DNA from: Anaerolineales bacterium
GTDB taxonomy: Bacteria > Chloroflexota > Anaerolineae > Anaerolineales > RBG-16-64-43
NCBI GenBank assembly: GCA_049511715.1
Contig: JBEKXU010000007.1
Span: forward strand, 8,615 to 72,614
DNA: 64,000 bases
Direction of reading: 5' to 3'
The translations under genes were made by a program, and so were the position numbers. Positions within the stretch are counted from its first letter, which is position 1, and every line of letters begins with the position of its first letter. The notes under the pieces were generated by a model. That model was not told where the DNA came from. It saw nothing but the letters and a program-made list of their open reading frames with translations, and ran no database searches. Positions 25,520 to 42,893 of this stretch are shown here, in pieces.

Positions 25520-26625
25520 AAGCTCGGATCATGGAAAAGAGCGGGAAAACGAAGACGACACGAGCGATGGCTTGGCGCAGATCGGCCCTCACGTGGCTGC
25601 CTGGGCTCTTGCTGACCATCCTGGCCGTCGTGATCCTCTGGCGGGTTGTGAGCTGGAAAGAGGTCCTGGGCGCTTGGGCAAGGGCTCGTCCATGGGTGAT
25701 TCTGCCGGGCCTGGTTCTCATGGTACTGGCTCAACTGTCCCGAGCGATGGGCTGGCGGTACCTTGTGGATCGCAAGGTGAGCGTCGCACGATCCTTCTCT
25801 GTCCTTAATGTCGGCTACCTCCTTAACACCCTATTGCCTTTTCGCCTGGGAGACCTGAGCCGGGCCGTTCTGGCAGGACTGCCCGGGCGGGGGGATTCGC
25901 TCCTCTCCGTGAGTTCGGCTCTGTCTGCCGTGGTCGTCGAGCGGGTGGTTGACCTGCTGGTCACGGGGTTGATCGGGTTGGCCGCCGTCGCCTTCTTTGC
26001 CGGCACCTCCTGGGCCGGTCGAGCTCTGGAGGTCACCTTGCTCCTGGCCGTCCTGGGCACCCTGGCTCTTTTCGCACTGGCCATGGCTCGGGCAGGGATC
26101 GTCAGGGTCGTACAGAGAGAGCTGGGTAGAGTGGCGTGGCTGGAACCGTGGGTCGTTCGCCTGGACGAATTCCTGGCAGGGATCCAGGTCATTGGACGGT
26201 GGAGTGTCGCGGTCCCGGCTGTGGCAGGAATCCTGGGGGCGTGGCTGGCGTGGATGCTGGAGTATTGGGTGATCCTGGAGGGGTTTGTTCCTGGCGCGGG
26301 ACTGAATCTGGCCCTGGCAGCTCTGGCGGGGGGCGCGCTAGGAGTCATGATCCCCTCCTCGCCCAACTCTCTCGGGGTGTATGAAGCTGCCGTGGTGGGC
26401 GTCCTCTCCGTCGCGGGGATGTCTCCCGGAGTCGCCCTGGCTTTTGCTCTGTCCATCCATGTCCTGAACACGATTGGGGTATTTGCCCTCGGGATCTGGG
26501 GTTTGCTGCGGGAGGAACAGACCCTTGGACAGCTTGTGACAGCCGTGATGCAAATCCGAGGGCGGAAGCAACCCAGTGAGGGGCCGGATGTTCCTGCGCC
26601 CCCGTATGCGGGGAGCGAAGGCTGA
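25516..26625 (+). CDS. flippase-like membrane protein (lysylphosphatidylglycerol-synthase TM-region family)
   Basis: ~8 predicted TM segments with the family pattern [11 protein letters not shown] ... [23 protein letters not shown] 25516 overlaps the lepA stop; alternative ATGs at 25531 and 25567. Confidence 0.6.
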
Positions 26626-26631
26626 ACTCCG

Positions 26632-27831
26632 ATGCGGATTCTGATTGTCCTGACATACTACCGCCCTCATGTCTCCGGCCTGACGATCTACACCGAGCGC
26701 GTGGCTCGAGCGCTGGCCCGTCGCGGGCATCAGGTCACGGTCCTGACCTCAAGGTTTGACCGCCGCCTTCCCGCTCGGGAAAGCCTCGAGGGGGTCGAAA
26801 TCATTCGGCCCTGGGTGATGGCCAGGGTGAGCAGAGGGGTGCTCATGCCCACCATCGGAAGCTGGGCCTCGCTGCTCGTCCCCTCCCACGATGCGATCAG
26901 CATCCACCTGCCACAGTTCGATGCCCCCGGCATTGCCCTGCGTGGGCGCCTCTTCCGAAAGCCGACGCTCCTCACGTACCATTGTGACCTAAGTCTCCCG
27001 CCCACGGCTTTCAACTACCTTGCCAATCAAGTGGTGCACGCAGCCAATCATCTTGCGGCCGGTGCGGCCCACGGGATCGTTGCCTACACCCGTGACTATG
27101 CCGAGAACTCTCCTTTTCTGGCCCGCTACCTGAACAAGGTAATTGTGATTCCGCCTCCCGTGGAAGTCGCTGAGGTGAGCGAGGAAGAGGTGGAGATCTT
27201 CCGGTCGTGCCATGGTCTGAACCATCACCGGGTCATTGGGATGGCGGCCCGACTGGCGACCGAAAAGGGGGTTGAGTACTTGCTCGAAGCTCTTCCGGGT
27301 GTGCTTGAGAGGTACCCCGACCTGCAAGTCCTTTTTGCCGGGCAGAATCAGAATGTGCTCGGGGAGGAGGCCTACGCACGGAAGTTGCTTCCGGTCATCG
27401 CGCGCCTCGGGAATCATTGGAAGTTCTTGGGAACGCTGGACCCCAGGGCCATGGCAACGTTCTTTCGGGCCTGTGACGTGACGGTACTGCCCAGCATCAA
27501 CAGCACCGAGAGCTTCGGCCTTGTTCAGATTGAGTCGATGATGTGCGGACGTCCGGTTGTGGCCTCGGCTCTGCCCGGGGTGAGACAACCTGTCCGCAAC
27601 ACGGGCATGGGCCGCCTCGTCCCTCCGAGAGACGGACGGGCCCTAGCCGAGGCCCTCTTGGAGATCCTTGACCATCCTGAAGCCTACGACAAGCCCACCC
27701 AGGATCTTCAGGCCGTCTACGCGCCGGATGCGGTGGCCGCCCAGTATGAACAGCAATTCTTGGAACTGGAGCGCCAGCTGGCCGTCCAAGGTTCGCGGCA
27801 CAACTCCGGCCCCTCCAGGGGGCGGAAGTGA
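26632..27831 (+). CDS. glycosyltransferase family 4
   Basis: MRILIVLTYYRPHVSGLT N-terminus and C-terminal GT-B motif PSINSTESFGLVQIESMMCGRPVVAS. Confidence 0.85.
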   Translation: MRILIVLTYYRPHVSGLTIYTERVARALARRGHQVTVLTSRFDRRLPARESLEGVEIIRPWVMARVSRGVLMPTIGSWASLLVPSHDAISIHLPQFDAPGIALRGRLFRKPTLLTYHCDLSLPPTAFNYLANQVVHAANHLAAGAAHGIVAYTRDYAENSPFLARYLNKVIVIPPPVEVAEVSEEEVEIFRSCHGLNHHRVIGMAARLATEKGVEYLLEALPGVLERYPDLQVLFAGQNQNVLGEEAYARKLLPVIARLGNHWKFLGTLDPRAMATFFRACDVTVLPSINSTESFGLVQIESMMCGRPVVASALPGVRQPVRNTGMGRLVPPRDGRALAEALLEILDHPEAYDKPTQDLQAVYAPDAVAAQYEQQFLELERQLAVQGSRHNSGPSRGRK

Positions 27832-28622
27832 CTCCATCCGGGAACGATCGAGTGCTTTGGAACCACCTCCTGGACTTACCCTACTTCCGTGCGCTCCTGC
27901 GAGCCGTGGAGGATGGCTTTTACCAAGGGCTGACCCTGCCGGAGCCGACCCTGGACATAGGCTGCGGAGACGGGCATTTTGCCTCTGTCGCCTTTTCCCG
28001 GCGCATTGATGTGGGATTGGATCCTTCGTTTTTGGTCCTGCCCGAGGCGAAAAGGCGCGGGGGTTATCGCCTGGTAGTGCAAGGGGACGGGATGCGGATT
28101 CCTTTTCCTACCGCTTGGTTTGCCAGTGCGATGAGCAACTCGGTGCTGGAACACATTCCCAGGGTGGACGAGGTAGTCGTGGAGATCGGTCGGGTGCTCA
28201 AGCCCGGAGCTCCCTTTGTGTTCTGCGTTCCGAACCCCCGCTACCTTTCCTATCTTTCCGTGGCGAGGATCCTCGCCGCCGTCGGCCTGCAGCGAGCGGC
28301 TGGCTACTATCGGGATTGGTTCCGGCGAATGTCCCGAACGTACAACCTTGATGAGGCCGAGGGTTGGCGGGCCCGGCTGGATCGAGCCGGGTTGGTTCTG
28401 GAATCTTCCTGGGACTATTTCTCGGAATCCTCCCTGCGTACGCTGGAATGGGGACACTACCTGGGGCTGCCCTGCCTGGTTGCCCGCAAGCTCACCGGGA
28501 GATGGATTCTCTGGAAGTCCAAGATCAACTTGGCGCTGACCTGGCGGCTCGTCTCGCCACATTTTCATGAGGCGACCCCAGCCCAGGGGGCCTACACCTT
28601 CTACGTCGCCAGGCGGGCATGA
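27828..28622 (+). CDS. class I SAM-dependent methyltransferase
   Basis: Motif I LDIGCGDGHF and post-I/II regions (SNSVLEHIP, IGRVLKPGAPFVF). 4-nt overlap with the GT4 stop. Confidence 0.8.
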   Translation: MTPSGNDRVLWNHLLDLPYFRALLRAVEDGFYQGLTLPEPTLDIGCGDGHFASVAFSRRIDVGLDPSFLVLPEAKRRGGYRLVVQGDGMRIPFPTAWFASAMSNSVLEHIPRVDEVVVEIGRVLKPGAPFVFCVPNPRYLSYLSVARILAAVGLQRAAGYYRDWFRRMSRTYNLDEAEGWRARLDRAGLVLESSWDYFSESSLRTLEWGHYLGLPCLVARKLTGRWILWKSKINLALTWRLVSPHFHEATPAQGAYTFYVARRA

Positions 28623-28658
28623 CTCCCTTCGACGAAGGCTATCTTCATACCCGCACAA

Positions 28659-29303
28659 ATGAAAGGCTGCCTGTTGCCCGCCCTCAACCAATACCGGCGG
28701 CCGAATGGCTTCCACGCCGGTCTTGCATGGCCCTACGACCGCCCGCGGCGGCGTCCGTCCGGGGCGGGTTGGGGTCTGGGTCACCTTATTGGGCAGTTGG
28801 AAGGGGACCCTGGGCTTCATCCCGTCGACGTGAATCCATGGACCTAGGGCCGAGCTTGGCAGGTCGCTCCCTGCATGCGGGTCAATGAGGTTTCTGCCGA
28901 GTGTGTCTTCTGCGGAGCGAAAAGCTTTAGTGTCGTCATCATCAAGCACATCGTCGGACACCTGATTCACCCGGATCAGGCCCTTCACGAACTCGGCAGA
29001 GTGCTGGTCCCAGGAGGAACCCTGATTCTCTCTACCCCCAATCTGAGCTCCCTGCTTCGTCCGCTCAACGGCGGCCGGTGGATCGCGTCTCAGGATCCTA
29101 CCTACCTCTCATTGAAGCCGCCGGATGAGTGGCTGGATCCGGTCGATCGGGCCGCCGAGGTCCAAGTGCGAAGAGTTATCAGCGACGGGTTTTGGGATGC
29201 GCCCTATCTTCCATTTGTCGCAGCGGTCATGCAAAAGCTTTTCTTTGGATCGCTGGGTGGCGTCCATGCAAGTGGCGGGTGGGTCCTTCTCCCTCTCCGC
29301 TAG
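28659..29303 (+). pseudogene. decayed class I methyltransferase (in-frame TAG at 28845-28847, degenerate motif I)
   Basis: One frame reads ...RPSGAGWGLGHLIGQLEGDPGLHPVDVNPWT*GRAWQ...SFSVVIIKHIVGHLIHPDQALHELGRVLVPGGTLILSTPN. The Methyltransf_11-like C-half is intact. Motif I is mutated (GAGWG instead of D-x-G-C-G) and interrupted by a stop. An ATG at 28619 that overlaps the upstream stop is in a different frame. Confidence 0.45.
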
Positions 29304-29352
29304 GGGAGAGTATGATTGCAATCGGGCGCAGGCATTTTGGGGCAAACCATCA

Positions 29353-31704
29353 ATGAATGAGCCCACAGCTTCTCTTCTGGACTGGATCCGGGCGGAACTC
29401 AGGCAACCGGCCGTCAAGCGCGCTATTCGCGGGTTCCTGGCTTTGGTTGTCGGGCTGATCGGGCTGAGCTATCTTGCCCTGCGTGGTCCGCTCTCCCCGG
29501 AAGGATACGTGCTGCTCGTGATCGCAGCGGGTCTGGCCGTGTGGGCAGCCCGAGCTCGAGGGCAAGCGGTTCCCGTTCCCCCGATCCCTGTGCCCCCTGA
29601 GCCGGCCCAGCTCTCCTCGGCACCCAAGGTCGTTCGAGGCACCGTCGCCTGGGGTCGGATCCTTCGACCCTGTGCGGCGTTTCTCCTGGCGCTCGTCGCT
29701 CAGGCCGTCATGGATCTCCGCCCCAGCGGGTACCCCGCCAGCACGCGGCTGGCAGGCGTTCTCTACCTTCTACCGATTCTGGTTCTGATTTGGTCCTGGC
29801 GGGCGGGCGATTGGCAGGTCCTTGAGTTGCGTGAGGAAGCCGATCCTGCGGGTTCCTGGGTGCTCTCGTTGCCCTCCGTACTTTGCGCGTGGTTGGGGGC
29901 CGGTCTGAGCCTGGCGGCCTATCTTGCCTTCAAGGGTGACGTTTTCACCCCGACCAACCTGACTCTCTGGATCCTTGCGCTGCTCTTGTGGCTCGTTGCC
30001 CTGTCCCCATCGGAGTCGGGAACTCCCCGTGTGCTGCGCCTGCTCAAAGAGTGGGCCCAGCGGCTTTGGGCGAGGCTGAAGAGCCTGGAGAACGGAGTAC
30101 ACCTTTCCGGGTGGACTCTCCTGGTCTTGTCGGGGTTTCTCCTGGCCGCCTTTTTCCGTCTCTACCGGCTCGATCTGGTGGCCCCCGAGATGACGAGTGA
30201 CCACGCTGAAAAGTTGCTGGATGTCATGGATGTTATCGCAGGCAAATACTCAACCTTCTTCCCGCGCAATACCGGGCGCGAGTTTATTGAATTCTATCTG
30301 GCCGCTTTTGTCGCAACGACCTTTGGCACAGGGATTTCCTTCATCACCCTGAAAATCGTCACGGCGGCAGCCGGGCTGGCCACGCTTCCCTACGTCTACC
30401 TGCTCGGCAAGGAGATTGCGGACCGGAGAGTGGGCCTGGTCGCCATGGTTTTGACCGGCATTGCCTACTGGCCAAATGTGAACAGCCGGATCGGGCTGCG
30501 CTTCCCCTTCCTTCCTCTCTTTGTGGCTCCGGCCCTGTATTACCTGATCCGTGGCTTGCGCCATCGCCGGGCGGAGGATTTCCTCTGGGCGGGGATTGCC
30601 CTGGGCCTTGGGTTTAATGGCTACTCCCCGATTCGCATTCTGCCCTTCGTCATGCTGGCGGCCGTGATCCTCTTCAGCCTCCACCGCCAGGCGAAGGGCT
30701 CGCGAGTCTGGGCCTGGAAAGGTCTGCTGGCCGCCTTCGTCCCGGCGTTCGTCCTGGGCCTGCCGCTCTTGCACTACGCCATGAATAATCCGTTTGTCTT
30801 TTGGGAGCGCACCCTGACGCGAATCGGTCAGAGCGAGGCGACCTACCCCGGCAACCCGATCCTCCTCTTCGTGCAGAACCAGATTAATGCGCTGCTGATG
30901 TTCAATTGGAGCGACGGCACGGCCTGGTTCTTGGGCGTGCCCGGCCGGCCAGCCCTGGATATCGTGAGTGCGGCCCTGTTGGTTCTGGGACTCTTTTTTT
31001 TGTTGGGCAGGTACCTGCGCCACCGGAACTGGTTGGATCTGTTCCTGCTCTTCTCCATTCCGCTGCTGATGCTTCCCTCTTCGCTGGCAATTGCCTTCCC
31101 GATCGAGAATCCGGCGGAGAACCGCACCTCCGGAGTCTACCCGATCGTTTTCGTGGTGGTCGCCATCGGAGCGGTCATGCTCCTGGACACCCTGAAGGGC
31201 CGCCTGTCGCAATGGAGTTATCGCTTTCTCGTCCTGCCTTGTGCCGGCCTGCTGTTCATGGGTGCGATGGTGCAGAACTACCAGATCACCTTTGAACAGT
31301 ATCCGACTCAGTATCGGCTGGCGGCTCAGAACGCCTCGGAGATTGGCGCACTGGTGGAGGCTTTTGCCCGTTCGGTGGGTGACTACCAGGACGCGTATGT
31401 TATCCCTTACCCCTATTGGGTGGACACGCGCTTGGTAGGAATGTACGGGGGAGATCCTAGCCGGGACTTCGCGCTTCCCCCGGCGTCTCTGCAAACGCTG
31501 AACCCGGAAGGGCAGCCGCTGCTCATTGTGTTCAACCGGAATGATCGCGACACCTTGAAGGTTGTCTCTTCGCGGTTCCCTTCCGGACGACTGCAGCGGT
31601 TCGCCTCCAAGGTTCCGGACCACGATTTCTTCTATTACTTCGTTCCCGGGAGCCCAACCCAGTCAGCTGGGCAATCCGCAGGATCCGCCTCGTCAAGCCC
31701 ATAG
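29353..31704 (+). CDS. GT-C-fold polytopic glycosyltransferase-like protein (ArnT/PMT_2-like)
   Basis: More than 12 hydrophobic segments. PMT_2-like core FFRLYRLDLVAPEMTSDHAEK ... LPYVYLLGKEIADRRVGLVAMVLTGIAYWPNV ... LGFNGYSPIRILPF, plus a C-terminal soluble domain. ATG 29353 was chosen because the 29125 start overlaps the upstream pseudogene. Confidence 0.65.
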   Translation: MNEPTASLLDWIRAELRQPAVKRAIRGFLALVVGLIGLSYLALRGPLSPEGYVLLVIAAGLAVWAARARGQAVPVPPIPVPPEPAQLSSAPKVVRGTVAWGRILRPCAAFLLALVAQAVMDLRPSGYPASTRLAGVLYLLPILVLIWSWRAGDWQVLELREEADPAGSWVLSLPSVLCAWLGAGLSLAAYLAFKGDVFTPTNLTLWILALLLWLVALSPSESGTPRVLRLLKEWAQRLWARLKSLENGVHLSGWTLLVLSGFLLAAFFRLYRLDLVAPEMTSDHAEKLLDVMDVIAGKYSTFFPRNTGREFIEFYLAAFVATTFGTGISFITLKIVTAAAGLATLPYVYLLGKEIADRRVGLVAMVLTGIAYWPNVNSRIGLRFPFLPLFVAPALYYLIRGLRHRRAEDFLWAGIALGLGFNGYSPIRILPFVMLAAVILFSLHRQAKGSRVWAWKGLLAAFVPAFVLGLPLLHYAMNNPFVFWERTLTRIGQSEATYPGNPILLFVQNQINALLMFNWSDGTAWFLGVPGRPALDIVSAALLVLGLFFLLGRYLRHRNWLDLFLLFSIPLLMLPSSLAIAFPIENPAENRTSGVYPIVFVVVAIGAVMLLDTLKGRLSQWSYRFLVLPCAGLLFMGAMVQNYQITFEQYPTQYRLAAQNASEIGALVEAFARSVGDYQDAYVIPYPYWVDTRLVGMYGGDPSRDFALPPASLQTLNPEGQPLLIVFNRNDRDTLKVVSSRFPSGRLQRFASKVPDHDFFYYFVPGSPTQSAGQSAGSASSSP

Positions 31705-31746
31705 CGCCTCGACCTCAGCAATCCAAAACAGGCAGGTGTCGACAAC

Positions 31747-34700
31747 ATGAGCGAACATGAGCTCGAAGTGAAGAGGCAAGCGGAAGTCGGTCCTCAGAGT
31801 CCGATCCCTCCCCAGGAGGCGGCAGGCTTCCGCCGCGAGCGCGGCTCAGGCTGGCGTAGGTTCGCTGGATTCCTTTTCGACCTGATCTTGCTGGCCCTGA
31901 TTGGCATCGGGGTCGCCTGGCGCCTCAGTTGGGTCAACTGGAGCGAGGGCACAGATTTGAATCCCGATGAGTACGGCTTGACCGAGAATCTCACCGACCT
32001 GTCGATTCCCCAATCGCTGAGCGATTACTTCAACACGCGTCTCTCATCGATCAGTCCCTACCAGAAGTACGACGTCAACGGGAATGCGACTACCCCCGGC
32101 GCAAACAACGGCTTCGTTTACGGCCAGTTGCCGATTACCATCATTCGCTGGGTTGCTGAAAAGACGGGCAACACAGGTTATGACGATATCCGCCTCTTGG
32201 GTCGGCGGCTCTCGTCTTTTTGTGACATTCTCACGTTGCTTTTTCTGTTCTTGATCGGCCTGCGTTTGTACGGCCGGAGGGTGGGGCTGCTGGCTTCGGC
32301 TTTGGGTGCCTTGGCCGTACTCGAAATTCAGTATTCGCACTTCATGACGGTCGACAACTTCGCCTTGTTCTTTTCCGTGGTGGCGATGTTTGCCGCGGTG
32401 CAGGTGTCGAAGGACCGCGAGTCCGATTCGCGCAGGCTGTCCAGTTGGGGCTGGTACGCGCTGTTCGGTGTGGCCTTTGGCATGACCATGGCCTCGCGGG
32501 TGAACCTGTTCCCCCTGGCCGCCGAGCTTGTTGTCGCTGCCGGAATCTCCTACTACCGACAATTGAAGAACTCCGCAGCTGAATCGCCAAGAATTCTGGC
32601 GGCGGTGGCTGGGAAACTCGTTGTTGCGGGATTGATCTCGTTCCTCGTGTTCCGGGTCACCCAGCCGATGTCCTTCCGCGCCCTTCGGGGCGACACCACT
32701 CTTTCCACCCTGAACCTGAACCCGGACTGGGTGGCAAGCATGAAGGTGGCGCTGGAGCAATCGAACGGCATCGGCGGCGGACCTCCGGGCGAGCAATGGA
32801 CTAATCGGCCGATCATCGTCTTTCCACTTGTGAACATGATCCTTTGGGGATTGGGGCTCCCTCTCGGGCTGATGGCTTCGGGAGGGTTCTTCTTGGCTCT
32901 CTGGCGCTCCTGGAAAGGAGCCTGGGAGACGCACCTTCTGCCCCTCACGTGGGCCGGTGGGTATTTCCTTTTCATGGGAACCCGGTTCGTCAAATCGATC
33001 CGCTACTTTCTCCCGGTTTATCCCTTCATGGCGCTGTTGGCGGCCTGGGCCCTCCTTGAAATATGGAATCGAGTACGCGCCCTAAGGCAGAGCGGGAAGC
33101 CGAGGAGAGCGCTCTCCTGGGCCGGACCGGCCGCCGGGGTAGGCCTGTTTGTCGTGGTCCTGGGCGGGACGTTTCTTTACGCCTGGGGATTCACGGGAAT
33201 CTACCGTCACGAAAACACGAGGATCCAGGCTTCCCGCTGGATCTTTCAGAATGTCCCTGCGACTTTCACGGTCGAGATTCAAACCTCGACCGGCTTATAC
33301 AACGAACCGGTTCCGGTTCCTTATGGAACCCAGGTCGGCGCGAATCCCGCCCTTCTGCTCCCCTTCGAGGCGCACGTGGACGGGCAGGCGATTAGAGTCG
33401 AGGTGGCCCACGCACGCGGAGCCAGCGGAAGCGACGGTTCGGGCCAGCTGCAAGTTGTCCTTTCCAGCAATGCGGCGGGTTCGCAGCCCCTGGCTGAGGC
33501 CGCCTTGCAGGTTCCTGCGGTTGGGTCCGACCCGCGTGGGCAGTCGTCCAGCGCTCCGCTGAAGCCTGCGGCGGTGACGGCCAACCAGGTCTACTATCTC
33601 CTGGTCGCCGCCTCCCAGGGAGCGCCCATCAGTGTTTCGGGAGCCGCGGTCGCCAGCGAGAGCTGGGACGAGGGGCTTCCCCTGCGGATCGACGGACGCG
33701 ATCCCTTTGGCGGGCTCTACCAAGGCCTCACGATGGAGGTGCGTTGGCCGGACGATGAGAACAAGAGGCAAATGTTCATTCAGAATCTGGCGGCTTCCGA
33801 TTACATCTTCCTGTCCAGCCAACGGGGGTTATGGAGTCCGACGCGGTTGCCGCGTTCCTACCCCCTCACGGTGGCGTACTATCAGGACCTTTTTGCCGGG
33901 CGTCTCGGCTTTACTCTGGTGGCCCAGTTCCAGCAGCCGATTCGGATCGGGCCGCTGGTGCTGTCGGATCTCGCTGGAACCGTGGGATGGAACCAGACTC
34001 CCACGCTGCCCGTTTACAACAGCAACCTCTTCGCGGCGGAAGAAGCCTTTAGCGTTTATGACCACGCACCGGTATGGATCTTCAAGAAAAGCCCCAACTT
34101 TGACTTGAGCAAGGTGAAGGCCGTTTTGGATTCCGTGGACCTCCAGTACGTGGTTCCGGCCGATCCTCGGAATCCGATCCCGGCCATGAATGCCCTGATG
34201 CTGCCGCCCGATCGGTTGGCCGAGCAACGGGCTGGCGGAACATGGGCCTCCATGTTTTCCAGGCTTTCGGCCCAAAACTCAGTGGAAGTCCTGGGAGTGG
34301 TACTTTGGTTTCTTTGGGTGCTCCTGACCGGCTGGGCCGCCTTTCCGCTTGTCACTCTGGCGCTCAAGGGACTACCCGACCTGGGATACTCGCTGGCCCG
34401 GGTCGCCGGCTGGCTTCTCATCGCCTGGCTGGCTTGGCTGCTGGGCAGCTACGAAGTGCCCTTCGTGAGAATCACGTTGCTGGCCTTGTGGGCCGGCCTG
34501 ATCGCGGTGGGGGTCGCGATGTTTCTTATCGGCCGCCGCGAGTGGAAGGAGAAGCTGCGCCAGCATTGGCGGACCTGGGGCACGATGGAACTGGTCTTCC
34601 TGGCGCTCTTCCTTTTCGACTTGTTGCTGCGCTATGGCAACTCCGACCTCTGGCACCCCTCGTTCGGAGGGGAGAAGCCGATGGACTTCTCCTATTTCAA

Positions 34701-36717
34701 CGCCGTCATTAAGAGCACTTCCTTTCCCCCCTATGATCCCTGGTTTGCCGGGGGCCTCATCAATTATTACTACTTCGGGTTTGTCATCCTGGCTATCCCG
34801 ACCAAACTCCTGGCCATCCTCCCTTCGTTCGCTTACAACCTGAGCCTCCCATCGCTTTTCGCGATGCTGGGCCTGGCGGGCTTTGGTATTGGCTGGAGCT
34901 TGGCGACTCGGTTGCGGGAGGACGGCCATGTCCCTGTCTCTCCGCTTCTGGCGGGGGCGGCGGCAACCGTCGGCCTGATCCTCATCGGAAACCTCGGTGA
35001 AGTCCGGATGGTCTGGGAGGGCTGGATCGGGGCCAGCGGGCTCAAGATTCAGAATGGCCTGATGTTCGGCCTGGGCAGCGTCCTCAATGCTGCGTCGGGC
35101 ACCTGGCGGGTGTTCACCCAGCAGGCCACTTTCCCCTATGGCACTGGGGACTGGTATTGGATTCCCTCCCGTGCCATCCCTGTTCCCAATGGTCCAGGAG
35201 GGGTCCCCACGGAGGCCCAGCCCATTACCGAGTTCCCCTTCTTCACGTTTCTTTACGGCGACCCTCACGCCCACATGATCGCGATGCCCCTGACGGTGCT
35301 GGCCGTGGGTTTCGCGGTCTCGTTGGTTCTTCGGCCGCAACAGACGCGGCGATGGTCCGAGATTGTGCCGGCCTTGATTCTGGGATCCCTGGTGATCGGT
35401 GCCCTCCGCCCCACCAACACTTGGGACTTCCCGACCTATCTGGGGCTTGGGGTTGTGGCGGTTGGGTATGCCAATTGGAAAGCGGCTCCACCGGGCCACC
35501 CCACAGGGAGAGCTTGGGCCGCCGTGACTCTGGGAGTGGCGGAGATCGCCGCCCTGGTCGGCTTGTCCTTCCTCCTCTATCAGCCCTACTCCCAATGGTA
35601 CCTTCAGGGCTACACCTCGTTCCAATTCTGGACGGGCTCAAAGACACCCCTCGATTCGTACCTGATCATCCACGGGGTCTTTCTCTTCGTCCTGGTGAGC
35701 TTCCTGGTTCTCCTGACCAGGGACTGGCTGGCCAGCACCCCGCTGGCGGCTGTTGGGCGCTGGAGAAGGAATGGCCTGCTCGGATATGCGCTGGTGGGCT
35801 TTGTGGTCCTTCTGTTCGCGATCGTGCTCCTCTGGATGTTGCAGTATCAGGCCGTGGCCTTCGCCCTGCCGCTCATCGTCTGGGCGGGGTTGTTGGCGCT
35901 TCAGAAGAACCTTTCGGAGGCCAAGCGCCTTATTTTGGGGATGATGGTCGTGGCTCTGGCACTCACCGTGGTGGTGGAATTCGTGGTTCTGTCGGGCGAC
36001 ATCAGCCGCATGAATACGGTCTTCAAGTTCTATATCCAGGTCTGGATTCTGTTTGCGTTGGCGGCCGGGCCGGCCCTGGCATGGCTGCTGGCTTCGCGTG
36101 GTCAGTGGAGCCCTCGACTGGGCTCGCTTTGGACCGTCGCCGTGACCCTGCTGGTGTTGGGAGCCGCCTTCTACACCTATCAGGCCGGTCTCTCCAAGGT
36201 GGAGGACCGCATGGCCCCCAATGCGCCGCGCACCCTGGACGGGATGACCTATATGGCTTATGCCCAGTACGCGGATCAGGGGCAGACCATGGACTTGAAC
36301 GAAGACTTCCAGGCCATTGAGTGGATGCAGGAGAATATCATCGGATCCCCGGTCATCGTCGAGGCCAATACGGTCGAATACCACTGGGGATCCCGCTTCA
36401 CGATCTACACGGGCCTGCCCGGGGTGGTGGGGTGGGACTGGCATCAGCGTCAGCAGCGAGGGGTGGTCTCGCCGGTGGAAGTGGACGCGCGAGTGCAAGA
36501 AGTAAAGGAGTTCTATACCACTACCGACCAGGGCTGGGCGCGCCAATTCCTGAGCCGGTATCAGGTCAGCTATATTGTGGTCGGAGAGTTGGAACGCGCC
36601 TACTATCCGTCCGCCGGGCTGGAGAAATTCTCTCAGATGCAGGCCAAGGGATGGCTGCAGAAGGTCTATTCGGCCGGACACACTGTCATTTACAAGGTGG
36701 TTGGCTCGCCGAACTAG
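31747..36717 (+). CDS. 1656-aa fusion membrane protein: N-terminal GT-C/PMT_2-like module, ~360-aa non-membrane central region, C-terminal YYY (DUF2298, chlor_Arch_YYY) domain
   Basis: Uninterrupted 4971-nt ORF. N-module carries NPDEYG and LFLFLIGLRLYGRRVGLLASALGALAVLEIQYSHF. C-module carries GEKPMDFSYFNAVIKSTSFPPYDPWFAGGLINYYYFGF, EFPFFTFLYGDPHAH and RMNTVFKFY, and is colinear with the next gene. Confidence 0.7.
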   Translation: MSEHELEVKRQAEVGPQSPIPPQEAAGFRRERGSGWRRFAGFLFDLILLALIGIGVAWRLSWVNWSEGTDLNPDEYGLTENLTDLSIPQSLSDYFNTRLSSISPYQKYDVNGNATTPGANNGFVYGQLPITIIRWVAEKTGNTGYDDIRLLGRRLSSFCDILTLLFLFLIGLRLYGRRVGLLASALGALAVLEIQYSHFMTVDNFALFFSVVAMFAAVQVSKDRESDSRRLSSWGWYALFGVAFGMTMASRVNLFPLAAELVVAAGISYYRQLKNSAAESPRILAAVAGKLVVAGLISFLVFRVTQPMSFRALRGDTTLSTLNLNPDWVASMKVALEQSNGIGGGPPGEQWTNRPIIVFPLVNMILWGLGLPLGLMASGGFFLALWRSWKGAWETHLLPLTWAGGYFLFMGTRFVKSIRYFLPVYPFMALLAAWALLEIWNRVRALRQSGKPRRALSWAGPAAGVGLFVVVLGGTFLYAWGFTGIYRHENTRIQASRWIFQNVPATFTVEIQTSTGLYNEPVPVPYGTQVGANPALLLPFEAHVDGQAIRVEVAHARGASGSDGSGQLQVVLSSNAAGSQPLAEAALQVPAVGSDPRGQSSSAPLKPAAVTANQVYYLLVAASQGAPISVSGAAVASESWDEGLPLRIDGRDPFGGLYQGLTMEVRWPDDENKRQMFIQNLAASDYIFLSSQRGLWSPTRLPRSYPLTVAYYQDLFAGRLGFTLVAQFQQPIRIGPLVLSDLAGTVGWNQTPTLPVYNSNLFAAEEAFSVYDHAPVWIFKKSPNFDLSKVKAVLDSVDLQYVVPADPRNPIPAMNALMLPPDRLAEQRAGGTWASMFSRLSAQNSVEVLGVVLWFLWVLLTGWAAFPLVTLALKGLPDLGYSLARVAGWLLIAWLAWLLGSYEVPFVRITLLALWAGLIAVGVAMFLIGRREWKEKLRQHWRTWGTMELVFLALFLFDLLLRYGNSDLWHPSFGGEKPMDFSYFNAVIKSTSFPPYDPWFAGGLINYYYFGFVILAIPTKLLAILPSFAYNLSLPSLFAMLGLAGFGIGWSLATRLREDGHVPVSPLLAGAAATVGLILIGNLGEVRMVWEGWIGASGLKIQNGLMFGLGSVLNAASGTWRVFTQQATFPYGTGDWYWIPSRAIPVPNGPGGVPTEAQPITEFPFFTFLYGDPHAHMIAMPLTVLAVGFAVSLVLRPQQTRRWSEIVPALILGSLVIGALRPTNTWDFPTYLGLGVVAVGYANWKAAPPGHPTGRAWAAVTLGVAEIAALVGLSFLLYQPYSQWYLQGYTSFQFWTGSKTPLDSYLIIHGVFLFVLVSFLVLLTRDWLASTPLAAVGRWRRNGLLGYALVGFVVLLFAIVLLWMLQYQAVAFALPLIVWAGLLALQKNLSEAKRLILGMMVVALALTVVVEFVVLSGDISRMNTVFKFYIQVWILFALAAGPALAWLLASRGQWSPRLGSLWTVAVTLLVLGAAFYTYQAGLSKVEDRMAPNAPRTLDGMTYMAYAQYADQGQTMDLNEDFQAIEWMQENIIGSPVIVEANTVEYHWGSRFTIYTGLPGVVGWDWHQRQQRGVVSPVEVDARVQEVKEFYTTTDQGWARQFLSRYQVSYIVVGELERAYYPSAGLEKFSQMQAKGWLQKVYSAGHTVIYKVVGSPN

Positions 36718-36774
36718 CCTGATGGGGTCTGCTCCGGCCTCCCTCGGTTCCCCGGCTTATCTTCCGCGGCCTGA

Positions 36775-39339
36775 ATGAGCACCAATCTGCTCGCGTTCTG
36801 GAAATGGTGGGCGGCCCTTCTGCTTTTGGGCGCGGCCGCCTGGCCTCTGATTTTCTACCTCTTCCGGAGGTTGCCGGATCGGGGCCTGACCCTGGCTCGT
36901 CCCTTTGGCCTTTTGCTCGTGGGCTACCTGTTCTGGCTGGGAGCCTCCTTCGGGTTTTGGACCAACACGGCAGGTTCCGCCGCAGCGGCCGCGATCGCCG
37001 TGTTCGCGGTCGGCACGACCGCGTGCCTCCACGCTAGGGTGAGCCCTTGGGCTTGGCTGGGCCGTAAGAGGCGGATGGCCCTCGCCCAGGAGGCCGTGTT
37101 CCTCCTTGCGTTCACCGCCTGGGCCTGGGTGCGGGCGAACAATCCTGCTGCCGTCGACACCGAAAAGCCGATGGAGTTGGCGTTCATCAACTCGATCTTG
37201 CGATCGGTGACCTTTCCTCCCCGGGACCCGTGGCTTTCAGGCTACGCAATTTCCTACTACTACTTTGGCTATGTCCTGGTGGCCATGCTGGCCAAGATGG
37301 CCGCTGTGAGTGGGGCGTATGCCTTCAACCTGGGAGTCTCTTCCTGGTATGGGATGGCGGGACTGGCGGCCTATGGATTATTGAGCAATCTGCTGGCCCT
37401 GCGCGAGCGCGGGCGGGGTGCCCAGGAACGCTTTCGCTGGGCGGGTCTCCTGGCCCCTCTGACCCTGCTAGGCGTTGGGAACTTCGAGGGCATTCTCGAG
37501 GTTCTCTACAATCTCCACATTGGGTGGAGCGGCCAAAGCGGGCCGTTTTGGCAATGGCTCGATATTCTTGACCTTTCCTCACCCCCGACAAGCCCGGCGA
37601 CTCTGGATCCAACTCACTATCGCTTCTGGTGGTGGTGGCGCGCCTCGCGGGTCATCCAGGATCGGGACTTGCTGGGACGGAGTTTCAGCCTCCAGCCCAT
37701 CGATGAGTTCCCCTCCTTTTCGTTCATGTTGGGCGATCTTCACCCACACGTTCTGGCCCTCCCCATGGGGCTGGCCGTCCTGGGGTTGGGGCTGGAGCTC
37801 TTGCTTCGGATTTGGCGTTTGCCGGGCGCGCCGCGAAGGAGGCCCAGCCTAGGCGCCTTGTTTCCTCTTCCGTTGGCCGGGTTTGCCTCGCTGGTCCTTG
37901 GCGGGCTCGCCTTTCTCAACACGTGGGATTTTCCGGTCTACCTGCTCATCTGCGCCGGCGCAACCTGGCTTGCATGGCGAAAATGGGGGAGGCCGGGTCT
38001 CGGGCCTCTGGCCGGACGGTGGGGAGAGATTCTCGCGCTCGGGGTTCTCCTGTACCTGCCCTTCTATCTCAGCTTCTCATCCCAGGCGGCCGGCGTTCTG
38101 CCCAACCTCATCTTTGTCACAAAAGGTCAACAGTTCGCCGTGATGTTTGGGCCACTCCTGATTCCCGTGGCACTATGGCTTGGCTCTCTGGCCCTCTCGC
38201 GGAGGGGGCAGTTGGCCTGGGGGCGCGGTTTCCTGTTGGCGGCCGGGCTCGCCTTCGGTCTCTTTTCCTTCTCGCTCTTGCTGGGAGCGCTGGCGGTGCA
38301 AGACCCGTATGCGGCCCCCTTCGTCAGCAAACTCATCCAGCCGATGAGTGTCCGCCAGGCCGTGCTGGCGCTTCTCCAGCGGCGGTTGGTCATGCCGGGG
38401 TCTCTGATCGCTCTCGTGGCCCTCCTGACGCTGGTCTTCGCCGCGTTGCTGCCGAAAGGTCGGAAGCGCGATGCCTGCGCAGGAGGCGGCACGGAGTCTT
38501 CTCCCAAGAAGGGAAACCTGTGCCTTGCGCCGCAAGGGTTTTCCCCCGCGGAGATATTCCTGCTGTTGCTGGTTGCGGTGGGGGCGGCCCTGGTGCTCGT
38601 GCCCGAGTTTGTCTACCTGCGAGACCAATTCGGGGCGCGCATGAACACCGTCTTCAAGTTTTACTTCCAGGCCTGGGCGTATTGGAGTCTCGCTGCGGCC
38701 TATGGCCTGGTGGTCCTTTGGGGTTGGCGGCAGAGTCGATCGCAGGCCCCTTCCCACCCGGCGCGGGAAGGTGGGACGCCCTTCTGGATCCGGCTGAGCT
38801 GTGGCCTTGCTGTCGCTGGGTTGCTCCTGGGGTTCCTCTACACGCCCCTTTCGGTTTGGACGAAGACCTCTGGTTTTGGCCTCGGATCTTCGGCGACCCT
38901 GGACGCCTCCGCCCACTTGGAGTTGGACGATCCTGCCGACGCGCAGGCCATCGCTTGGATCAATTCCAATCTGAAGGGCGGCCCAATGGCCGAGGCGGTG
39001 GGGGGGGATTACACGAACTTCGCGCGAATCTCAACCTACACGGGCCTTCCGACGGTACTGGGTTGGCCTGGCCACGAAGGGCAGTGGAGGGGTGGGTATA
39101 ATGAGATCGGCTCCCGCCAGGACGACATGGCCCAACTCTACCGCACCCAGGATTGGACGATGGCGCTCAACATCATTGAGCGATACCAAATCCAGTATGT
39201 TTACTATGGCCCCCTGGAGATCCAGGCGTACGGAAGCTCCGGCCTGGCGAAATTCCAGGCCCACCTGCGCGTCGCGTATCACAGCGAGCAGGTGACTATC
39301 TTCGAGGTCGAGCCGAACGCATCCTCCGGAGGCTCTTAG
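36775..39339 (+). CDS. YYY-domain (DUF2298 / chlor_Arch_YYY) integral membrane protein
   Basis: TEKPMELAFINSILRSVTFPPRDPWLSGYAISYYYFGYV, EFPSFSFMLGDLHPH, NTWDFPVYL, RMNTVFKFYFQAW, YTGLPTVLGWPGHEGQWRG. Confidence 0.75.
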   Translation: MSTNLLAFWKWWAALLLLGAAAWPLIFYLFRRLPDRGLTLARPFGLLLVGYLFWLGASFGFWTNTAGSAAAAAIAVFAVGTTACLHARVSPWAWLGRKRRMALAQEAVFLLAFTAWAWVRANNPAAVDTEKPMELAFINSILRSVTFPPRDPWLSGYAISYYYFGYVLVAMLAKMAAVSGAYAFNLGVSSWYGMAGLAAYGLLSNLLALRERGRGAQERFRWAGLLAPLTLLGVGNFEGILEVLYNLHIGWSGQSGPFWQWLDILDLSSPPTSPATLDPTHYRFWWWWRASRVIQDRDLLGRSFSLQPIDEFPSFSFMLGDLHPHVLALPMGLAVLGLGLELLLRIWRLPGAPRRRPSLGALFPLPLAGFASLVLGGLAFLNTWDFPVYLLICAGATWLAWRKWGRPGLGPLAGRWGEILALGVLLYLPFYLSFSSQAAGVLPNLIFVTKGQQFAVMFGPLLIPVALWLGSLALSRRGQLAWGRGFLLAAGLAFGLFSFSLLLGALAVQDPYAAPFVSKLIQPMSVRQAVLALLQRRLVMPGSLIALVALLTLVFAALLPKGRKRDACAGGGTESSPKKGNLCLAPQGFSPAEIFLLLLVAVGAALVLVPEFVYLRDQFGARMNTVFKFYFQAWAYWSLAAAYGLVVLWGWRQSRSQAPSHPAREGGTPFWIRLSCGLAVAGLLLGFLYTPLSVWTKTSGFGLGSSATLDASAHLELDDPADAQAIAWINSNLKGGPMAEAVGGDYTNFARISTYTGLPTVLGWPGHEGQWRGGYNEIGSRQDDMAQLYRTQDWTMALNIIERYQIQYVYYGPLEIQAYGSSGLAKFQAHLRVAYHSEQVTIFEVEPNASSGGS

Positions 39340-39342
39340 CTT

Positions 39343-41157
39343 ATGAAGGCTGTTGGCCAGCCCGGGTCTGTCGCTCCACCGCCGCCCCAGGCGTCGGCGC
39401 TCGATTCTTTCTTCCGAGAGCACGAGATGGCCTTGTATGCGGGGGCGGTGGCCATTGCCCTGGCTCTGCGGTTTGCTGGTCTGTCCGCGTTCCCGCTAAG
39501 TGACACAGAGGCCGCCCAGGCCTGGGCGGCTCTTCATCTCGCGCGGGGCCAGATCGTAGCCGACCTGGGGGCCACCAATCCTCTGTACACCGTCCTCACG
39601 GCCGCCCTGTTTTTCGTCGGGGGACCAGGCGACTTTCTGGCCCGACTGTGGCCTGCTGTCGCGGGCACGGCTGTGGTCCTTCTGCCCCTTGGCATGAGGC
39701 GGGCCTTTAACCGGTCGGAGGCGATTCTGGCCTCCTTCCTGCTTGCCCTTTCCCCGGGGATCACCGCGATCTCCCACCTGGCGGGGGGCGCCACCCTTGC
39801 GCTCTTGCCGATGGGAATCCTCATTCTGCTTGCCGCGGAGGAAGGACTGGCCCAGAGCCCCGGGCTGGCCGGTGTTTGTGCAGGCGCAGCGTTGGCCACC
39901 GGGAGCGATGGCCTCACCGGGCTGCTTCTGCTCGGGTTGGGGATTGGAATTGCCAGCCTCTGGGCAAGGAAGGCAAGCAGGGCCGTGCCGATCGAGGGGA
40001 CCATCCGGGACGATGTTTCCCGCTTGCTGGCGTCCTCTCGCTTTTGGATCGCCGCTGCCTTGTCATTCGCAATTGGGGTGACCGGACTCCTTTTTCCAGC
40101 CGGCTTGGGAGTGTTCGCCTCGGGGTTGCAAAGATGGGCCTCCGAGCTGGTTCAGCCCGCAGGATACTCCGTGGGGCAGATGGTGCTGCTCCTGCTGGGT
40201 TACGAAGGCCTGGCCTTTCTGGGCTGTCTCACGGCTATGGGCTTGCTCCGCAGCGAGCGGATGAGCGGGGGCCTGTTTTTCCTTCTGGCTTTCTTGGGCT
40301 TGGCAGTGCTCTGGTGCCTCCTTCGCCCAGGGCGGTCTCCGGAGGATGCGATCTGGGTCCTCTTCCCCATGGTGATCTTGGCCAGCAGGGGGATCTATCG
40401 AACGCTATGCACCTTTGCCGCTTCTCACAGCCGCTGGGCGAGTCGGTGCCAGGTCCTGGCGAGTCTGGCGCTGGGAGTTTTTGCCTGGCAGAGCTTTGCC
40501 GGGCACGCGGTCCTGGGCGGACAAGTGCCGGACAGTTCCGCTGCCATCCGGATTGGCGTCGGGGTTGTCGCGATTGTGGCGATGGTTGTGCTGGCCGGTC
40601 TCTTTGCCACGAGCTGGAGCGAAAATGTGAGCGTGGCGGCCGCCGGGCTGGGCCTGGCGGTCGGGATTCTTCTCTTGGTGGGCCAGATCTCAGCCGCGGC
40701 CAATCTCGCAGGGACCCGGCGCGGAGAGGCCAACGAAGTGTGGTGGCCCTCTGCCACGACGAATCAACTGGGATTCCTGGTGAGCAATTTGCAGCAAATC
40801 TCAGAATGGCAGACCGGAACCCCTGAGGATCTGCCGATCGTGGTCTCGGGCGATCCCGACAGCGCGGTGGGCTGGGCGCTCAGATCGTTCCCCAACACCT
40901 CCTATGCCATTCCCAATGCAGGCGCCGACCCGGCGGTATACCTTTCCATTGAGGTCGCAGGAAAGAATCAGCCCCTGCCGCCATTCTCGGCAGCGTACAT
41001 GGGCGAGCCCTTCACCCTGCAGACGTATCGGGCCTGGAGCGACTTCCCCCCGGACCTGCTGGCTTGGTGGATTTATCGAATGGCTCCGACTCGGACTGAG
41101 CGGGTCATCCTGTGGGCGCGGCAGGACGTGCTGAACCCAGGCCCTGGAAAAGGCTAG
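39343..41157 (+). CDS. polytopic membrane protein, GT-C-like N-terminus (function unknown)
   Basis: ~12 hydrophobic segments. First-loop pattern LRFAGLSAFPLSDTEAAQAWAAL resembles the R-x-L-x-PL-x-DE-A motif of ArnT/PMT_2 enzymes. ~130-aa C-terminal soluble domain. Starts 3 nt after the previous stop. Confidence 0.5.
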   Translation: MKAVGQPGSVAPPPPQASALDSFFREHEMALYAGAVAIALALRFAGLSAFPLSDTEAAQAWAALHLARGQIVADLGATNPLYTVLTAALFFVGGPGDFLARLWPAVAGTAVVLLPLGMRRAFNRSEAILASFLLALSPGITAISHLAGGATLALLPMGILILLAAEEGLAQSPGLAGVCAGAALATGSDGLTGLLLLGLGIGIASLWARKASRAVPIEGTIRDDVSRLLASSRFWIAAALSFAIGVTGLLFPAGLGVFASGLQRWASELVQPAGYSVGQMVLLLLGYEGLAFLGCLTAMGLLRSERMSGGLFFLLAFLGLAVLWCLLRPGRSPEDAIWVLFPMVILASRGIYRTLCTFAASHSRWASRCQVLASLALGVFAWQSFAGHAVLGGQVPDSSAAIRIGVGVVAIVAMVVLAGLFATSWSENVSVAAAGLGLAVGILLLVGQISAAANLAGTRRGEANEVWWPSATTNQLGFLVSNLQQISEWQTGTPEDLPIVVSGDPDSAVGWALRSFPNTSYAIPNAGADPAVYLSIEVAGKNQPLPPFSAAYMGEPFTLQTYRAWSDFPPDLLAWWIYRMAPTRTERVILWARQDVLNPGPGKG

Positions 41158-41907: not shown

Positions 41908-41979
41908 GCGCCATCAGAGTAGGCACACGGCTTTCCGCCGCACAAGAGGTAAGACCCACAGTTGAGAGGAGTCCTCACC

Positions 41980-42720
41980 GTGAATCCCGCCGCGAGCTTG
42001 GGCAAGAAGCGCTTCGCTTGGGGGGGCCGTCCGTATGTCCCTTCCCGCTTCGTACCGATCCGGACCGTCCTGCACTTCCTGCTGAGAAACTTCGCCTGCC
42101 GCATGCTCATTCGTCTCGAGGGCGTCGAAGGGTTGCAGAACATTCCTCCTTCCGGTGCCGCGATCTTGATGATCAACCACATTGCCTTCGTGGACCCGCT
42201 GGTCGTCATGGCCGTAGCCCCCAGGTTGGTCGTCCCCATGGCGAAGATCGAGGTATACAGTCTGCCGGTTATCGGCCTGTTCCCGAAGCTCTACGGGGTC
42301 ATCCCGGTCCGACGCAGTGAGGTGGATCGGCGGGCTTTGGCCATGGCTCTGGACGTGCTGGAGGCGGGAGAGACCGTTCTGGTTGCTCCGGAAGGGCACC
42401 GGGGATCGGCCCTGCAGCAGGGAAAGGAAGGCATGGCCTTCTTGGCTATCCGCTCGGGCGCTCCGGTAGTCCCGGTGGCCATTGACGGAACGGTGGGATA
42501 TCCCTCTGCCGATCCCAGACGCTGGGCTCGGGGGGGAGCGCACATCACCTTCGGGAAGCCATTTCGATTGCATCCGGCCTTGGGCGAATCGCTGCGCGGA
42601 CAACTGCGGGAAATGACCGACGAAGCCATGCGTCAGGTGGCTTCGATGCTTCCTCCTGCGCGCCGGGGAGTCTATGCCGCCTCGGTCTCGTCGCCTCCCA
42701 GGCATCTCGACTTCTCTTGA
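41980..42720 (+). CDS. plsC: 1-acyl-sn-glycerol-3-phosphate acyltransferase
   Basis: HX4D motif NHIAFVD and VAPEGHRG. Start placed at GTG 41980, 10 nt after GAGGAG (the ORF opens at TTG 41962). Confidence 0.8.
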   Translation: MNPAASLGKKRFAWGGRPYVPSRFVPIRTVLHFLLRNFACRMLIRLEGVEGLQNIPPSGAAILMINHIAFVDPLVVMAVAPRLVVPMAKIEVYSLPVIGLFPKLYGVIPVRRSEVDRRALAMALDVLEAGETVLVAPEGHRGSALQQGKEGMAFLAIRSGAPVVPVAIDGTVGYPSADPRRWARGGAHITFGKPFRLHPALGESLRGQLREMTDEAMRQVASMLPPARRGVYAASVSSPPRHLDFS

Positions 42721-42893
42721 GCCCAAGTCCATTCCAGTGGGGTCGATGACCGTCCATACCCGCTTGCAGGGGCCGTCGGAAGCTTCACGAACTCGCCTCC
42801 TCGGCGCTCGGCCGATTGCTCGCGGGTCGCTTTCCACGTGGAAGGACCTGCCGGACCACCCTGCGAGGGGCCTCCGCCGTGCCTGATCCGGTC

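Follow-up and report, generated by a model that had tools for sequence, protein, structure and literature searches.

A tandem protein of Anaerolineae that joins a GT39-like membrane enzyme to a YYY/DUF2298 unit with a predicted GT-C fold

Glycosyltransferases of the membrane-embedded GT-C class have mostly been studied as single-core proteins that assemble into non-covalent dimers. Eukaryotic protein O-mannosyltransferases (PMTs) transfer mannose onto Ser and Thr residues of proteins and carry a MIR domain in loop 5, and the related bacterial GT39 enzymes have no MIR domain. In the mycobacterial lipomannan/lipoarabinomannan pathway several GT-C genes in a row act together with GT4 enzymes on an envelope glycan. 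To our knowledge, no protein with two GT-C cores in one chain has been characterised. Here, we analyse an open reading frame (ORF) at 31747..36717 (+) in a 64,000-nucleotide (nt) stretch of an Anaerolineales genome (Chloroflexota; assembly GCA_049511715.1, contig JBEKXU010000007.1, positions 8,615 to 72,614), referred to below as the window. Taken as a whole, the ORF is best explained as one polypeptide with two complete GT-C-type membrane glycosyltransferase units in tandem, carrying out coupled transfers, a reading to which we give a probability of about 0.6. Unit 1 (amino acids (aa) 1-~830) is GT39-like, and unit 2 (aa ~847-1656) belongs to the YYY/DUF2298 family.

The ORF begins with ATG and runs over 4971 nt with 1656 stop-free codons; at 62% GC, 1656 open codons would arise by chance with a probability of ~6e-22. 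A preliminary description had reported an uninterrupted frame that comprises a PMT_2-like N-terminal module, a soluble middle region and a full YYY domain. This composition was upheld by Pfam and NCBIfam scans, and the motifs quoted there were all found where they had been placed: NPDEYG at aa 72-77, a LFLFLIG...VDNF block at aa 165-205 and a Ser/Gly/Ala-rich stretch, ARGASGSDGSGQLQVVLSSNAAGSQ, at aa 556-580.

The distribution of the fused gene was determined by scanning one genome per species, which gave 596 confirmed matches, and the best 80 loci were analysed. All 80 lie in metagenome-assembled genomes of Anaerolineae, among them Villigracilis, Longilinea, Leptolinea, Bellilinea, Thermanaerothrix and Anaerolinea. 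At 68 of these loci one unbroken ORF of 1576-1917 aa (median 1724) aligns colinearly with the window protein, from ~aa 10-60 to ~1652; of the other 12, nine run into the end of a contig, one has a frameshift and two are of shorter form. A query that spans the junction (aa 640-1010) was compared with 1.84 billion cluster representatives and retrieved 3855 relatives, 603 of them at E<=1e-30. Of the best 150 representatives, ~130 match it over its entire length, and the N-terminal module, the middle region and a full YYY domain occur together in 65 of 146 junction-matching representatives (median 1706 aa). The candidate catalytic residues of both units are kept in 69 fused sequences at 35-60% overall identity. 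The fused layout is the norm for this gene in Anaerolineae and no peculiarity of the window. The preliminary description had presented it as a third YYY architecture; it does correspond to neither of the two forms that TIGRFAMs describes, but it is the common form in Anaerolineae (68/80 loci, 65/146 representatives), has its N-terminal region in common with the class of two YYY copies and TPR, and is better described as a point on a continuum.

These counts also bear on whether the long ORF could be an artefact, produced by a missed stop, a frameshift or the chimeric assembly of two neighbouring genes. Such an origin would agree with two loci, L003 and L056, that are split by frameshifts in apparently error-prone long-read assemblies, with single in-frame stops at two others (L001 and L004) and with the initial protein search, in which no listed match reached 1600 aa. 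On the other side, the 68 assemblies come from different projects and each carries the unbroken colinear ORF, the linker sequence is conserved, split relatives break within the YYY part and not at the junction, and full-length representatives of 1570-1924 aa are plentiful. Since 68 independent assemblies contain the same colinear uninterrupted ORF, a missed stop or frameshift is excluded as the source of the architecture, and we consider an artefact extremely improbable. In the closest syntenic relatives no break separates the GT39-like from the YYY part at the junction: a single frame aligns over aa 44-1654 in L001 and over aa 31-1052 in L004, and L003 is colinear and frameshifted.

Several frameshifts were seen over the whole fused gene of L003 and in L056 (6166-7874), both on contigs named in the style of a long-read assembler. 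Because such frameshifts break the fused gene, gene callers produce fragments of 900-1100 aa, and they probably account for the many odd-length 'YYY proteins' listed by the first protein search, none of which exceeded 1420 aa. At locus L053 (1819-4623) a fused-type YYY unit, 49% identical to the C-terminal half of the window protein, is encoded by a 934-aa ORF with small unrelated ORFs upstream, possibly a natural fission form without the GT39-like unit.

The membrane part of unit 1 (aa 1-487; 31747..33207 (+)) has a PMT/PMT_2-like GT-C core with 11 predicted transmembrane (TM) helices. In a scan of the full protein Pfam PMT_2 was detected at aa 157-277 (28.1 bits, cutoff 26.1), and a separate scan of aa 1-480 put both PMT (PF02366, 32.6 bits, cutoff 22.7) and PMT_2 (PF13231, 29.9 bits, cutoff 26.1) above their thresholds, by small margins only. 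An AlphaFold2 (AF2) model of aa 1-850 (mean predicted local distance difference test score (pLDDT) 87.6, predicted TM-score (pTM) 0.87) shows helices up to aa 487, a beta-rich part at ~505-640 and an alpha/beta part at ~650-800. In a Foldseek search against the PDB, the best 33 matches of unit 1 were all GT-C enzymes, with the lowest E value (1.5e-9) for AglB, and they include AglB, Pmt4, ArnT, STT3, ALG9/12/3, EmbC, PglB, Pmt1/2 and PimE. A profile search with unit 1 gave no sequence match in the PDB. The GT-C-like nature first proposed for this module is borne out by both the Pfam profiles and the predicted structure.

The first outer loop contains the NPDEYG motif (31960..31977 (+)), in which P73, D74 and E75 show no variation among 75 family members or among the 69 fused proteins. 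D74 and E75, placed extracytoplasmically by the predicted topology, form a candidate catalytic acid pair that corresponds to the 'DE' motif of PMTs. Unit 1 resembles PMT/GT39 enzymes (yeast Pmt1-Pmt2 and Pmt4, actinobacterial Pmt) in passing the PMT and PMT_2 profiles, in the Asp-Glu pair of the first outer loop, in a predicted topology with 11 TM helices, the N-terminus inside and the C-terminus outside, and in having Pmt4 and Pmt1/2 among its top structural matches; the dimers formed by PMTs also have a parallel in the covalent linkage of two GT-C units described here. It differs from them in that it is only ~10-15% identical to solved PMTs, has its own 350-aa C-terminal ectodomain without a Pfam family and is joined to a partner unit from another GT-C family. 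Pfam scans detected neither MIR nor any further domain in the loops or the ectodomain of unit 1, which does not exclude a PMT-like reaction, since MIR is missing from bacterial GT39 enzymes as well.

Among the 433 relatives retrieved with aa 1-850 as query, the top matches are almost without exception standalone proteins, 760-845 aa long, from members of Anaerolineales such as Levilinea and Bellilinea. They are ~50% identical to the query, cover 88-96% of it and carry both PMT and PMT_2; standalone homologs with this coverage number in the hundreds. Three standalone homologs located on long contigs have unrelated neighbourhoods without any YYY gene. Because the standalone homologs include the middle region and occur in unrelated contexts, this region belongs to the GT39-like enzyme itself, as its native C-terminal ectodomain. 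The preliminary description had treated it as a separate ~360-aa non-membrane domain; its non-membrane character holds, as no hydrophobic segment lies between aa 488 and 846, but it is not a separately inserted element. Unit 1, middle region included, is one complete and self-sufficient member of a GT39-like GT-C enzyme family, and the protein is better viewed as two parts than as three.

Two subdomains can be distinguished in this first ectodomain. The beta-sandwich at aa ~505-640 (33259..33666 (+)) was predicted with high pLDDT, is variable in sequence with low conservation among the fused proteins, and holds the Ser/Gly/Ala-rich stretch; since that stretch sits within confidently predicted strands, an interpretation as a linker was discarded. 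The AF2 and Foldseek check suggested for the central domain gave weak jelly-roll matches to 4-1BBL and to CBM6 (1o8p) at E ~0.02-0.05, and the CBM6 match (E 0.04) is a weak hint that the predicted fold may bind carbohydrate. The alpha/beta subdomain at aa ~650-800 (33694..34146 (+)), with the motifs WDEGLP, DDENK and AEEAFSVYDHxPVWIFKK, is kept in the standalone GT39-like proteins and in every fused form. No Pfam family was matched by the first ectodomain, even at E<=10. It is followed by a junction (aa 801-846; 34147..34284 (+)) with the motif L.L...Q..GGTW..F......N directly before the first YYY helix, conserved in the 69 fused proteins; in the model of aa 1-850 the junction has low pLDDT, and in a second model of aa 480-1656 it forms short helices.

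Unit 2 is a full-length member of the YYY family. TIGR03662 (Chlor_Arch_YYY) matches aa 848-1651 with 552.5 bits (cutoff 300.25) over model positions 2-726 of 727, and DUF2298 (PF10060) matches aa 891-1436 with 392 bits over all of its 488 positions (1-488). As had been described, the C-terminal half is colinear with the 854-aa protein encoded next door (30% identity, E 5e-62, aa 28-811 against aa 30-848). The membrane module (aa 847-1486; 34285..36204 (+)) comprises ~16 TM helices with a predicted GT-C fold. In Foldseek searches with the model of aa 480-1656 (pLDDT 90.9, pTM 0.79), unit 2 matched CeDPY19 (4e-7), AfAglB (1.5e-5), AftA (5e-5, TM-score 0.57 on target) and ArnT (2e-3). Its confident PDB matches were GT-C proteins only, with unrelated transporters at a probability of <=0.13, and the matches to catalytic GT-C enzymes span 780-860 aligned columns. 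The predicted structure suggests that the YYY domain itself has a GT-C fold, a point on which the earlier idea of YYY as a separate partner of a GT-C transferase has to be given up.

The outer loops of the YYY module contain a first group of motifs, GGEKPMD (974-980), FPPYDPW (993-999) and NYYYFG (1006-1011) (34666..34779 (+)), which are invariant or nearly so in the 69 fused proteins and are also kept in the neighbouring YYY protein. NYYYFG represents the YYYxG motif of the family, and N1006, Y1007-1009 and G1011 are invariant. ITEFP (1160-1164) and DPHAH (1172-1176) lie in a large outer loop (35224..35274 (+)) and are, judged by their conservation, a candidate metal or substrate site; I1160, E1162, F1163, P1164, D1172, H1174 and H1176 are invariant, and the neighbouring YYY protein has IDEFP...DLHPH. 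A further invariant polar motif is GD1418..R.N (R1421). The unit ends in a second ectodomain (aa 1487-1656; 36205..36714 (+)), for which AF2 predicts an alpha/beta fold at high pLDDT and which contains invariant residues (YTGLP..GW.WHQ.QQR); a relaxed scan found no Pfam family of its own. The idea, formed by eye, that the alpha/beta part of the first ectodomain is homologous to this domain was rejected at an hhalign probability of 0.4%.

The best structural matches of both units include the GT66 oligosaccharyltransferases (OSTs) AglB, PglB and STT3 and the GT98 C-mannosyltransferase DPY19, which share with them the build of a multi-TM core with an outer domain at its C-terminal end and conserved acidic residues in outer loops. 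They differ from the two units in that sequence similarity is absent and the hallmarks WWDYG and DxD were not recognised in either unit. ITEFP, DxHxH and GWxWHQ give no more than an impression of likeness to motifs of OST/DPY19 type. Another group with likeness is that of the mycobacterial Emb/Aft arabinosyltransferases (GT53/GT85), where the GT-C core is joined to an outer domain with a beta-sandwich and from which EmbC and AftA were among the matches; the heterodimeric pair EmbA-EmbB recalls the covalent pair described here. By sequence, Emb and Aft belong to other families, and each of their polypeptides has a single GT-C core.

All candidate catalytic residues of unit 2 (E976, D980, E1162, D1172, H1174, H1176 and D1418) are kept in the 69 fused sequences. 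This conservation bears on a pseudo-enzyme fusion, in which only one unit would be active and the other would be a degenerate scaffold for assembly or acceptor binding. Dimers of GT-C proteins with non-equivalent subunits are common (Pmt1-Pmt2 and EmbA-EmbB are generally known), and the standalone paralogs of unit 1 could provide activity, but the acidic motifs are invariant in both units across the fused sequences and are also retained in the standalone paralogs of each unit. We therefore regard such a scaffold as improbable and favour two active units.

The topology was derived from the AF2 helices and the distribution of Lys and Arg in the loops (positive-inside rule), as a simple Kyte-Doolittle scan under-called TM helices. 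By this approach unit 1 is predicted to have its N-terminus inside and its C-terminus outside, with the Lys/Arg-rich loops aa 1-34, 176-178, 222-232, 270-282 and 441-458 inside and D74/E75 as well as the long loop aa 306-357 outside; the middle ectodomain would therefore be extracytoplasmic. Unit 2 is predicted to start outside, to cross the membrane with its ~16 helices and to end outside, with the Lys/Arg-rich loops aa 929-945, 1196-1202, 1326-1343 and 1385-1393 inside and every conserved acidic or histidine motif outside. As unit 1 ends and unit 2 begins on the outer side, the two can be joined without an adaptor helix; the standalone YYY neighbour opens directly with the equivalent of the first YYY helix. 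About 27 TM helices are predicted for the whole tandem protein, and both catalytic faces and both ectodomains would be exposed on the outside of the cytoplasmic membrane.

Longer relatives extend the fusion further. P0253, P0256 and P0366 (2434-2521 aa) consist of a homolog of the N-terminal module (33-34% identity), the alpha/beta ectodomain and two YYY units, and P0366 has additional C-terminal tetratricopeptide repeats (TPR). This is the architecture of the two-copy class of TIGR03662 (an N-terminal region, two YYY copies and TPR), and since the long relatives carry a homolog of the N-terminal module, the 'additional N-terminal region' of that class is a GT39-like module. The window protein shares with it the order of GT39-like module, alpha/beta ectodomain and first YYY unit. 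It differs in having one YYY stretch and no TPR in the Pfam and NCBIfam scans and in possessing the beta-sandwich, which is absent from the two-YYY proteins; its second YYY unit is the separate gene 36775-39339. In P0379 (2315 aa) a PMT_2 module of the type encoded upstream in the window precedes the N-terminal module, the middle region and YYY. Super-fusions of 2300-2500 aa are present on several independent contigs, and the arrangement in the window belongs in this series, its later modules being encoded by individual neighbouring genes. The earlier argument that the fusion speaks for functional coupling is strengthened by these lineages, in which further neighbours of the cluster have been fused.

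In a neighbour-joining tree of the N-terminal halves, 66 fused proteins form one clade, the window protein and those of L001, L003 and L004 stand beside 73 standalone proteins, and another two fused proteins branch off below this latter group. The tree, midpoint-rooted and only indicative, suggests that the fused state is ancestral and the standalone ~800-aa family a derived paralog. A recent lineage-specific fusion was ruled out on account of its class-wide occurrence; the tree, in which the standalone family is a sister or derived branch of fused forms, is again no more than indicative on this point.

The fused gene is part of a co-directional cluster of conserved order: lepA, a flippase-like gene, a GT4 gene, a methyltransferase gene, a PMT_2 gene, the fusion, a second YYY gene, an Agl23-like gene and cmk. 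Synteny fractions were counted among loci with enough flank. Downstream of lepA lie an LPG_synthase_TM flippase-like protein (25516-26625 (+)), the GT4 glycosyltransferase (26632-27831 (+); upstream in 48/53 loci) and an S-adenosylmethionine-dependent methyltransferase (27828-28622 (+); upstream in 43/53). Directly before the fusion, as in 54/59 loci, is an 859-aa ORF for a PMT_2-type GT-C protein (29125..31704 (+); PMT_2 44 bits), the module that is fused in P0379. Its 5' end is probably over-extended: orthologs have ~700-720 aa, alignments begin at residue ~120-270, and M77 (nt 29353) or a later GTG or TTG is the likelier start. The fusion is followed by the standalone 854-aa YYY protein, a paralog of the C-terminal half (36775..39339 (+); downstream in 56/65 loci; fused in P0253, P0256 and P0366), by a 604-aa distant relative of Agl23 (39343..41157 (+); present in 50/58 loci) and by cmk (from 41176 (+); downstream in 51/58 loci). 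In many relatives a gene for a nucleoside diphosphate (NDP)-sugar epimerase/dehydratase of the short-chain dehydrogenase/reductase type lies between the flippase-like and GT4 genes (L013:1225-2262, L049:1577-2602); in the window this gene is absent, 25516-26625 being directly followed by 26632. Scans for promoters and terminators in the cluster found nothing above shuffled expectation. The AT skew is strongly negative, -0.18 to -0.26, over 28000-40000, the row of GT-C genes, and thereby far below most of the window (48001-50000 also shows -0.22), likely owing to the T-rich codons of very hydrophobic proteins encoded on the + strand.

The 604-aa protein scores 36 bits against TIGR03663, the Agl23 family, and its orthologs 37-57 bits, far below the cutoff of 126; all ten tested orthologs (10/10) match this family only, and a relaxed Pfam scan of the neighbour itself revealed no extra family. 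It resembles Agl23 of Haloarcula hispanica in this exclusive match, which would fit a supply of flipped sugars, and differs in its low score and in being encoded by a neighbouring gene outside of the fused ORF. Agl23 is a proposed hexose-P-dolichol flippase and flips M5GN2-PP-Dol in vitro (PMC11182771). This activity, the consistent position of YYY genes next to an Agl23-like gene and the failure to find a sequence-level link between YYY and catalytic GT-C families would be in line with the YYY unit being an Agl23-like translocase or scramblase of lipid-linked sugars, or a non-catalytic carrier-binding partner, so that the fusion would couple flipping to transfer by the GT39-like unit. We find this unlikely, as ~20 invariant polar residues in predicted outer loops together with a large conserved ectodomain are the pattern of a GT-C enzyme and not of a channel, the best structural matches are the catalytic GT-C enzymes mentioned above, and the cluster already holds two other translocase candidates.

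We return to the reading of two GT-C-type enzymes in tandem. From what was established directly, namely the anatomy of the protein, its predicted folds, its conservation, the synteny and the further fusions, we infer a donor type, catalytic competence, an order of steps and an acceptor. The two units would form a covalent heterodimer that performs two coupled or consecutive extracytoplasmic sugar transfers onto one acceptor of the cell envelope, with polyprenyl-phosphate-linked sugars as donors; this acceptor could be a glycan chain carried by a lipid or wall polymer or, alternatively, a secreted protein of the envelope. The cytoplasmic GT4 enzyme, the methyltransferase and, in many genomes, the NDP-sugar epimerase might prepare the lipid-linked sugars, the LPG_synthase_TM-type and Agl23-like proteins might translocate them, and four to five GT-C modules (PMT_2, the fusion and the second YYY protein) might use them outside. 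The cluster probably builds part of the Anaerolineae cell envelope. By analogy, the row of GT-C genes, the GT4 gene and the beta-sandwich ectodomain resemble a lipoglycan or wall-polysaccharide pathway, and the PMT-type motif, the structural matches to OST, PMT and DPY19 and the TPR of the super-fusions resemble protein glycosylation; the TPR in the 2500-aa super-fusions hints at a protein acceptor.

Several observations weigh against this reading. The GT-C assignment of the YYY unit comes from predicted structure, with Foldseek E values of 4e-7 to 2e-3 and TM-scores of 0.3-0.57, and as sequence-level support is nil, the assignment of DUF2298 rests on the predicted fold and the pattern of invariant polar residues. 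An hhalign comparison of YYY with the GT39-like profile of unit 1 gave a probability of 2.9%, and a homology between the two membrane units was accordingly dropped as a candidate; YYY members match only PF10060 in Pfam, even at E<=10, and a search with the YYY profile returned no sequence match in the PDB. In the literature the name DUF2298 was found in two papers, where it serves only as a label, and no biochemical or genetic data on it were found. Neither does the cluster contain a GT2-type polyprenyl-phosphate glycosyltransferase, the maker of the presumed donors. Some lineages lack the second YYY gene, and the genes of L001 and L004 have an in-frame stop in the YYY part.

At L022, L030, L037 and L065 the Agl23-like gene and cmk come directly after the fused gene and a second YYY gene is absent, so that these lineages either can do without the standalone paralog or have it elsewhere. 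The stops mentioned above are TAG at L001:3848-3850 and, at L004:7093-7095, TAA in place of the Tyr of the conserved GL.D.GY, both in relatives from short-read metagenomes, and past each stop the conserved sequence resumes in the same frame. They could be nonsense alleles, natural fissions, read-through sites, errors or pseudogenes, or it may be that an intact fusion is not always required.

Outside the cluster the window is unremarkable chromosomal DNA and carries argS, fabH/F, lon, rseP and a gene of the mevalonate pathway. The latter, a diphosphomevalonate decarboxylase-like gene at 61225-62205 (+), indicates a mevalonate route to isoprenoids, which bears on the supply of polyprenyl carriers. 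A DNA methylase (N6_N4_Mtase; 14893-16251 (-)) lies beside a 446-aa protein with a weak CobW/GTPase match (16282-17625 (-)), a combination that may be an orphan methyltransferase or else an atypical pair for restriction-modification or defence, with no restriction enzyme evident. Four ORFs in the range of 306-518 aa are without an assigned Pfam family. The long ORFs 12648-13733 (+), 51305-52864 (-) and 57662-58807 (-) have no Pfam match at E<=1e-5; 41914-42837 (-) has none at E<=1e-3, overlaps an ORF on the + strand and may not be a gene.

Since the layout is widespread and databases already label such proteins as 'YYY/DUF2298 domain-containing', the value of these results lies in the interpretation of the family and not in the locus. 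A fused and widely conserved pair is a defined 1:1 system for cooperation between GT-C proteins, extended in other lineages by fusions to a third core and TPR. DUF2298/YYY gains a concrete and testable assignment, a predicted GT-C fold with named candidate catalytic residues, and the family is tied to a conserved, housekeeping-linked gene cluster of Anaerolineae. Chloroflexota have neither a lipopolysaccharide nor a BAM pathway, and their layered envelope, presumed to consist of polysaccharide or protein, is unsettled in its make-up and biogenesis (PMC13319060); this is the biological question on which the cluster may bear. As a tentative and at present doubtful proposal, YYY/DUF2298 might be a previously unrecognised catalytic GT-C family of Archaea and Chloroflexota, possibly OST- or DPY19-like in mechanism, and the tandem protein with its PMT_2, YYY and Agl23-like neighbours a multi-GT-C assembly line for an envelope glycan or glycoprotein layer. 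If true, a catalytic YYY family would make the cluster such a line for the atypical envelope layer of Chloroflexota.

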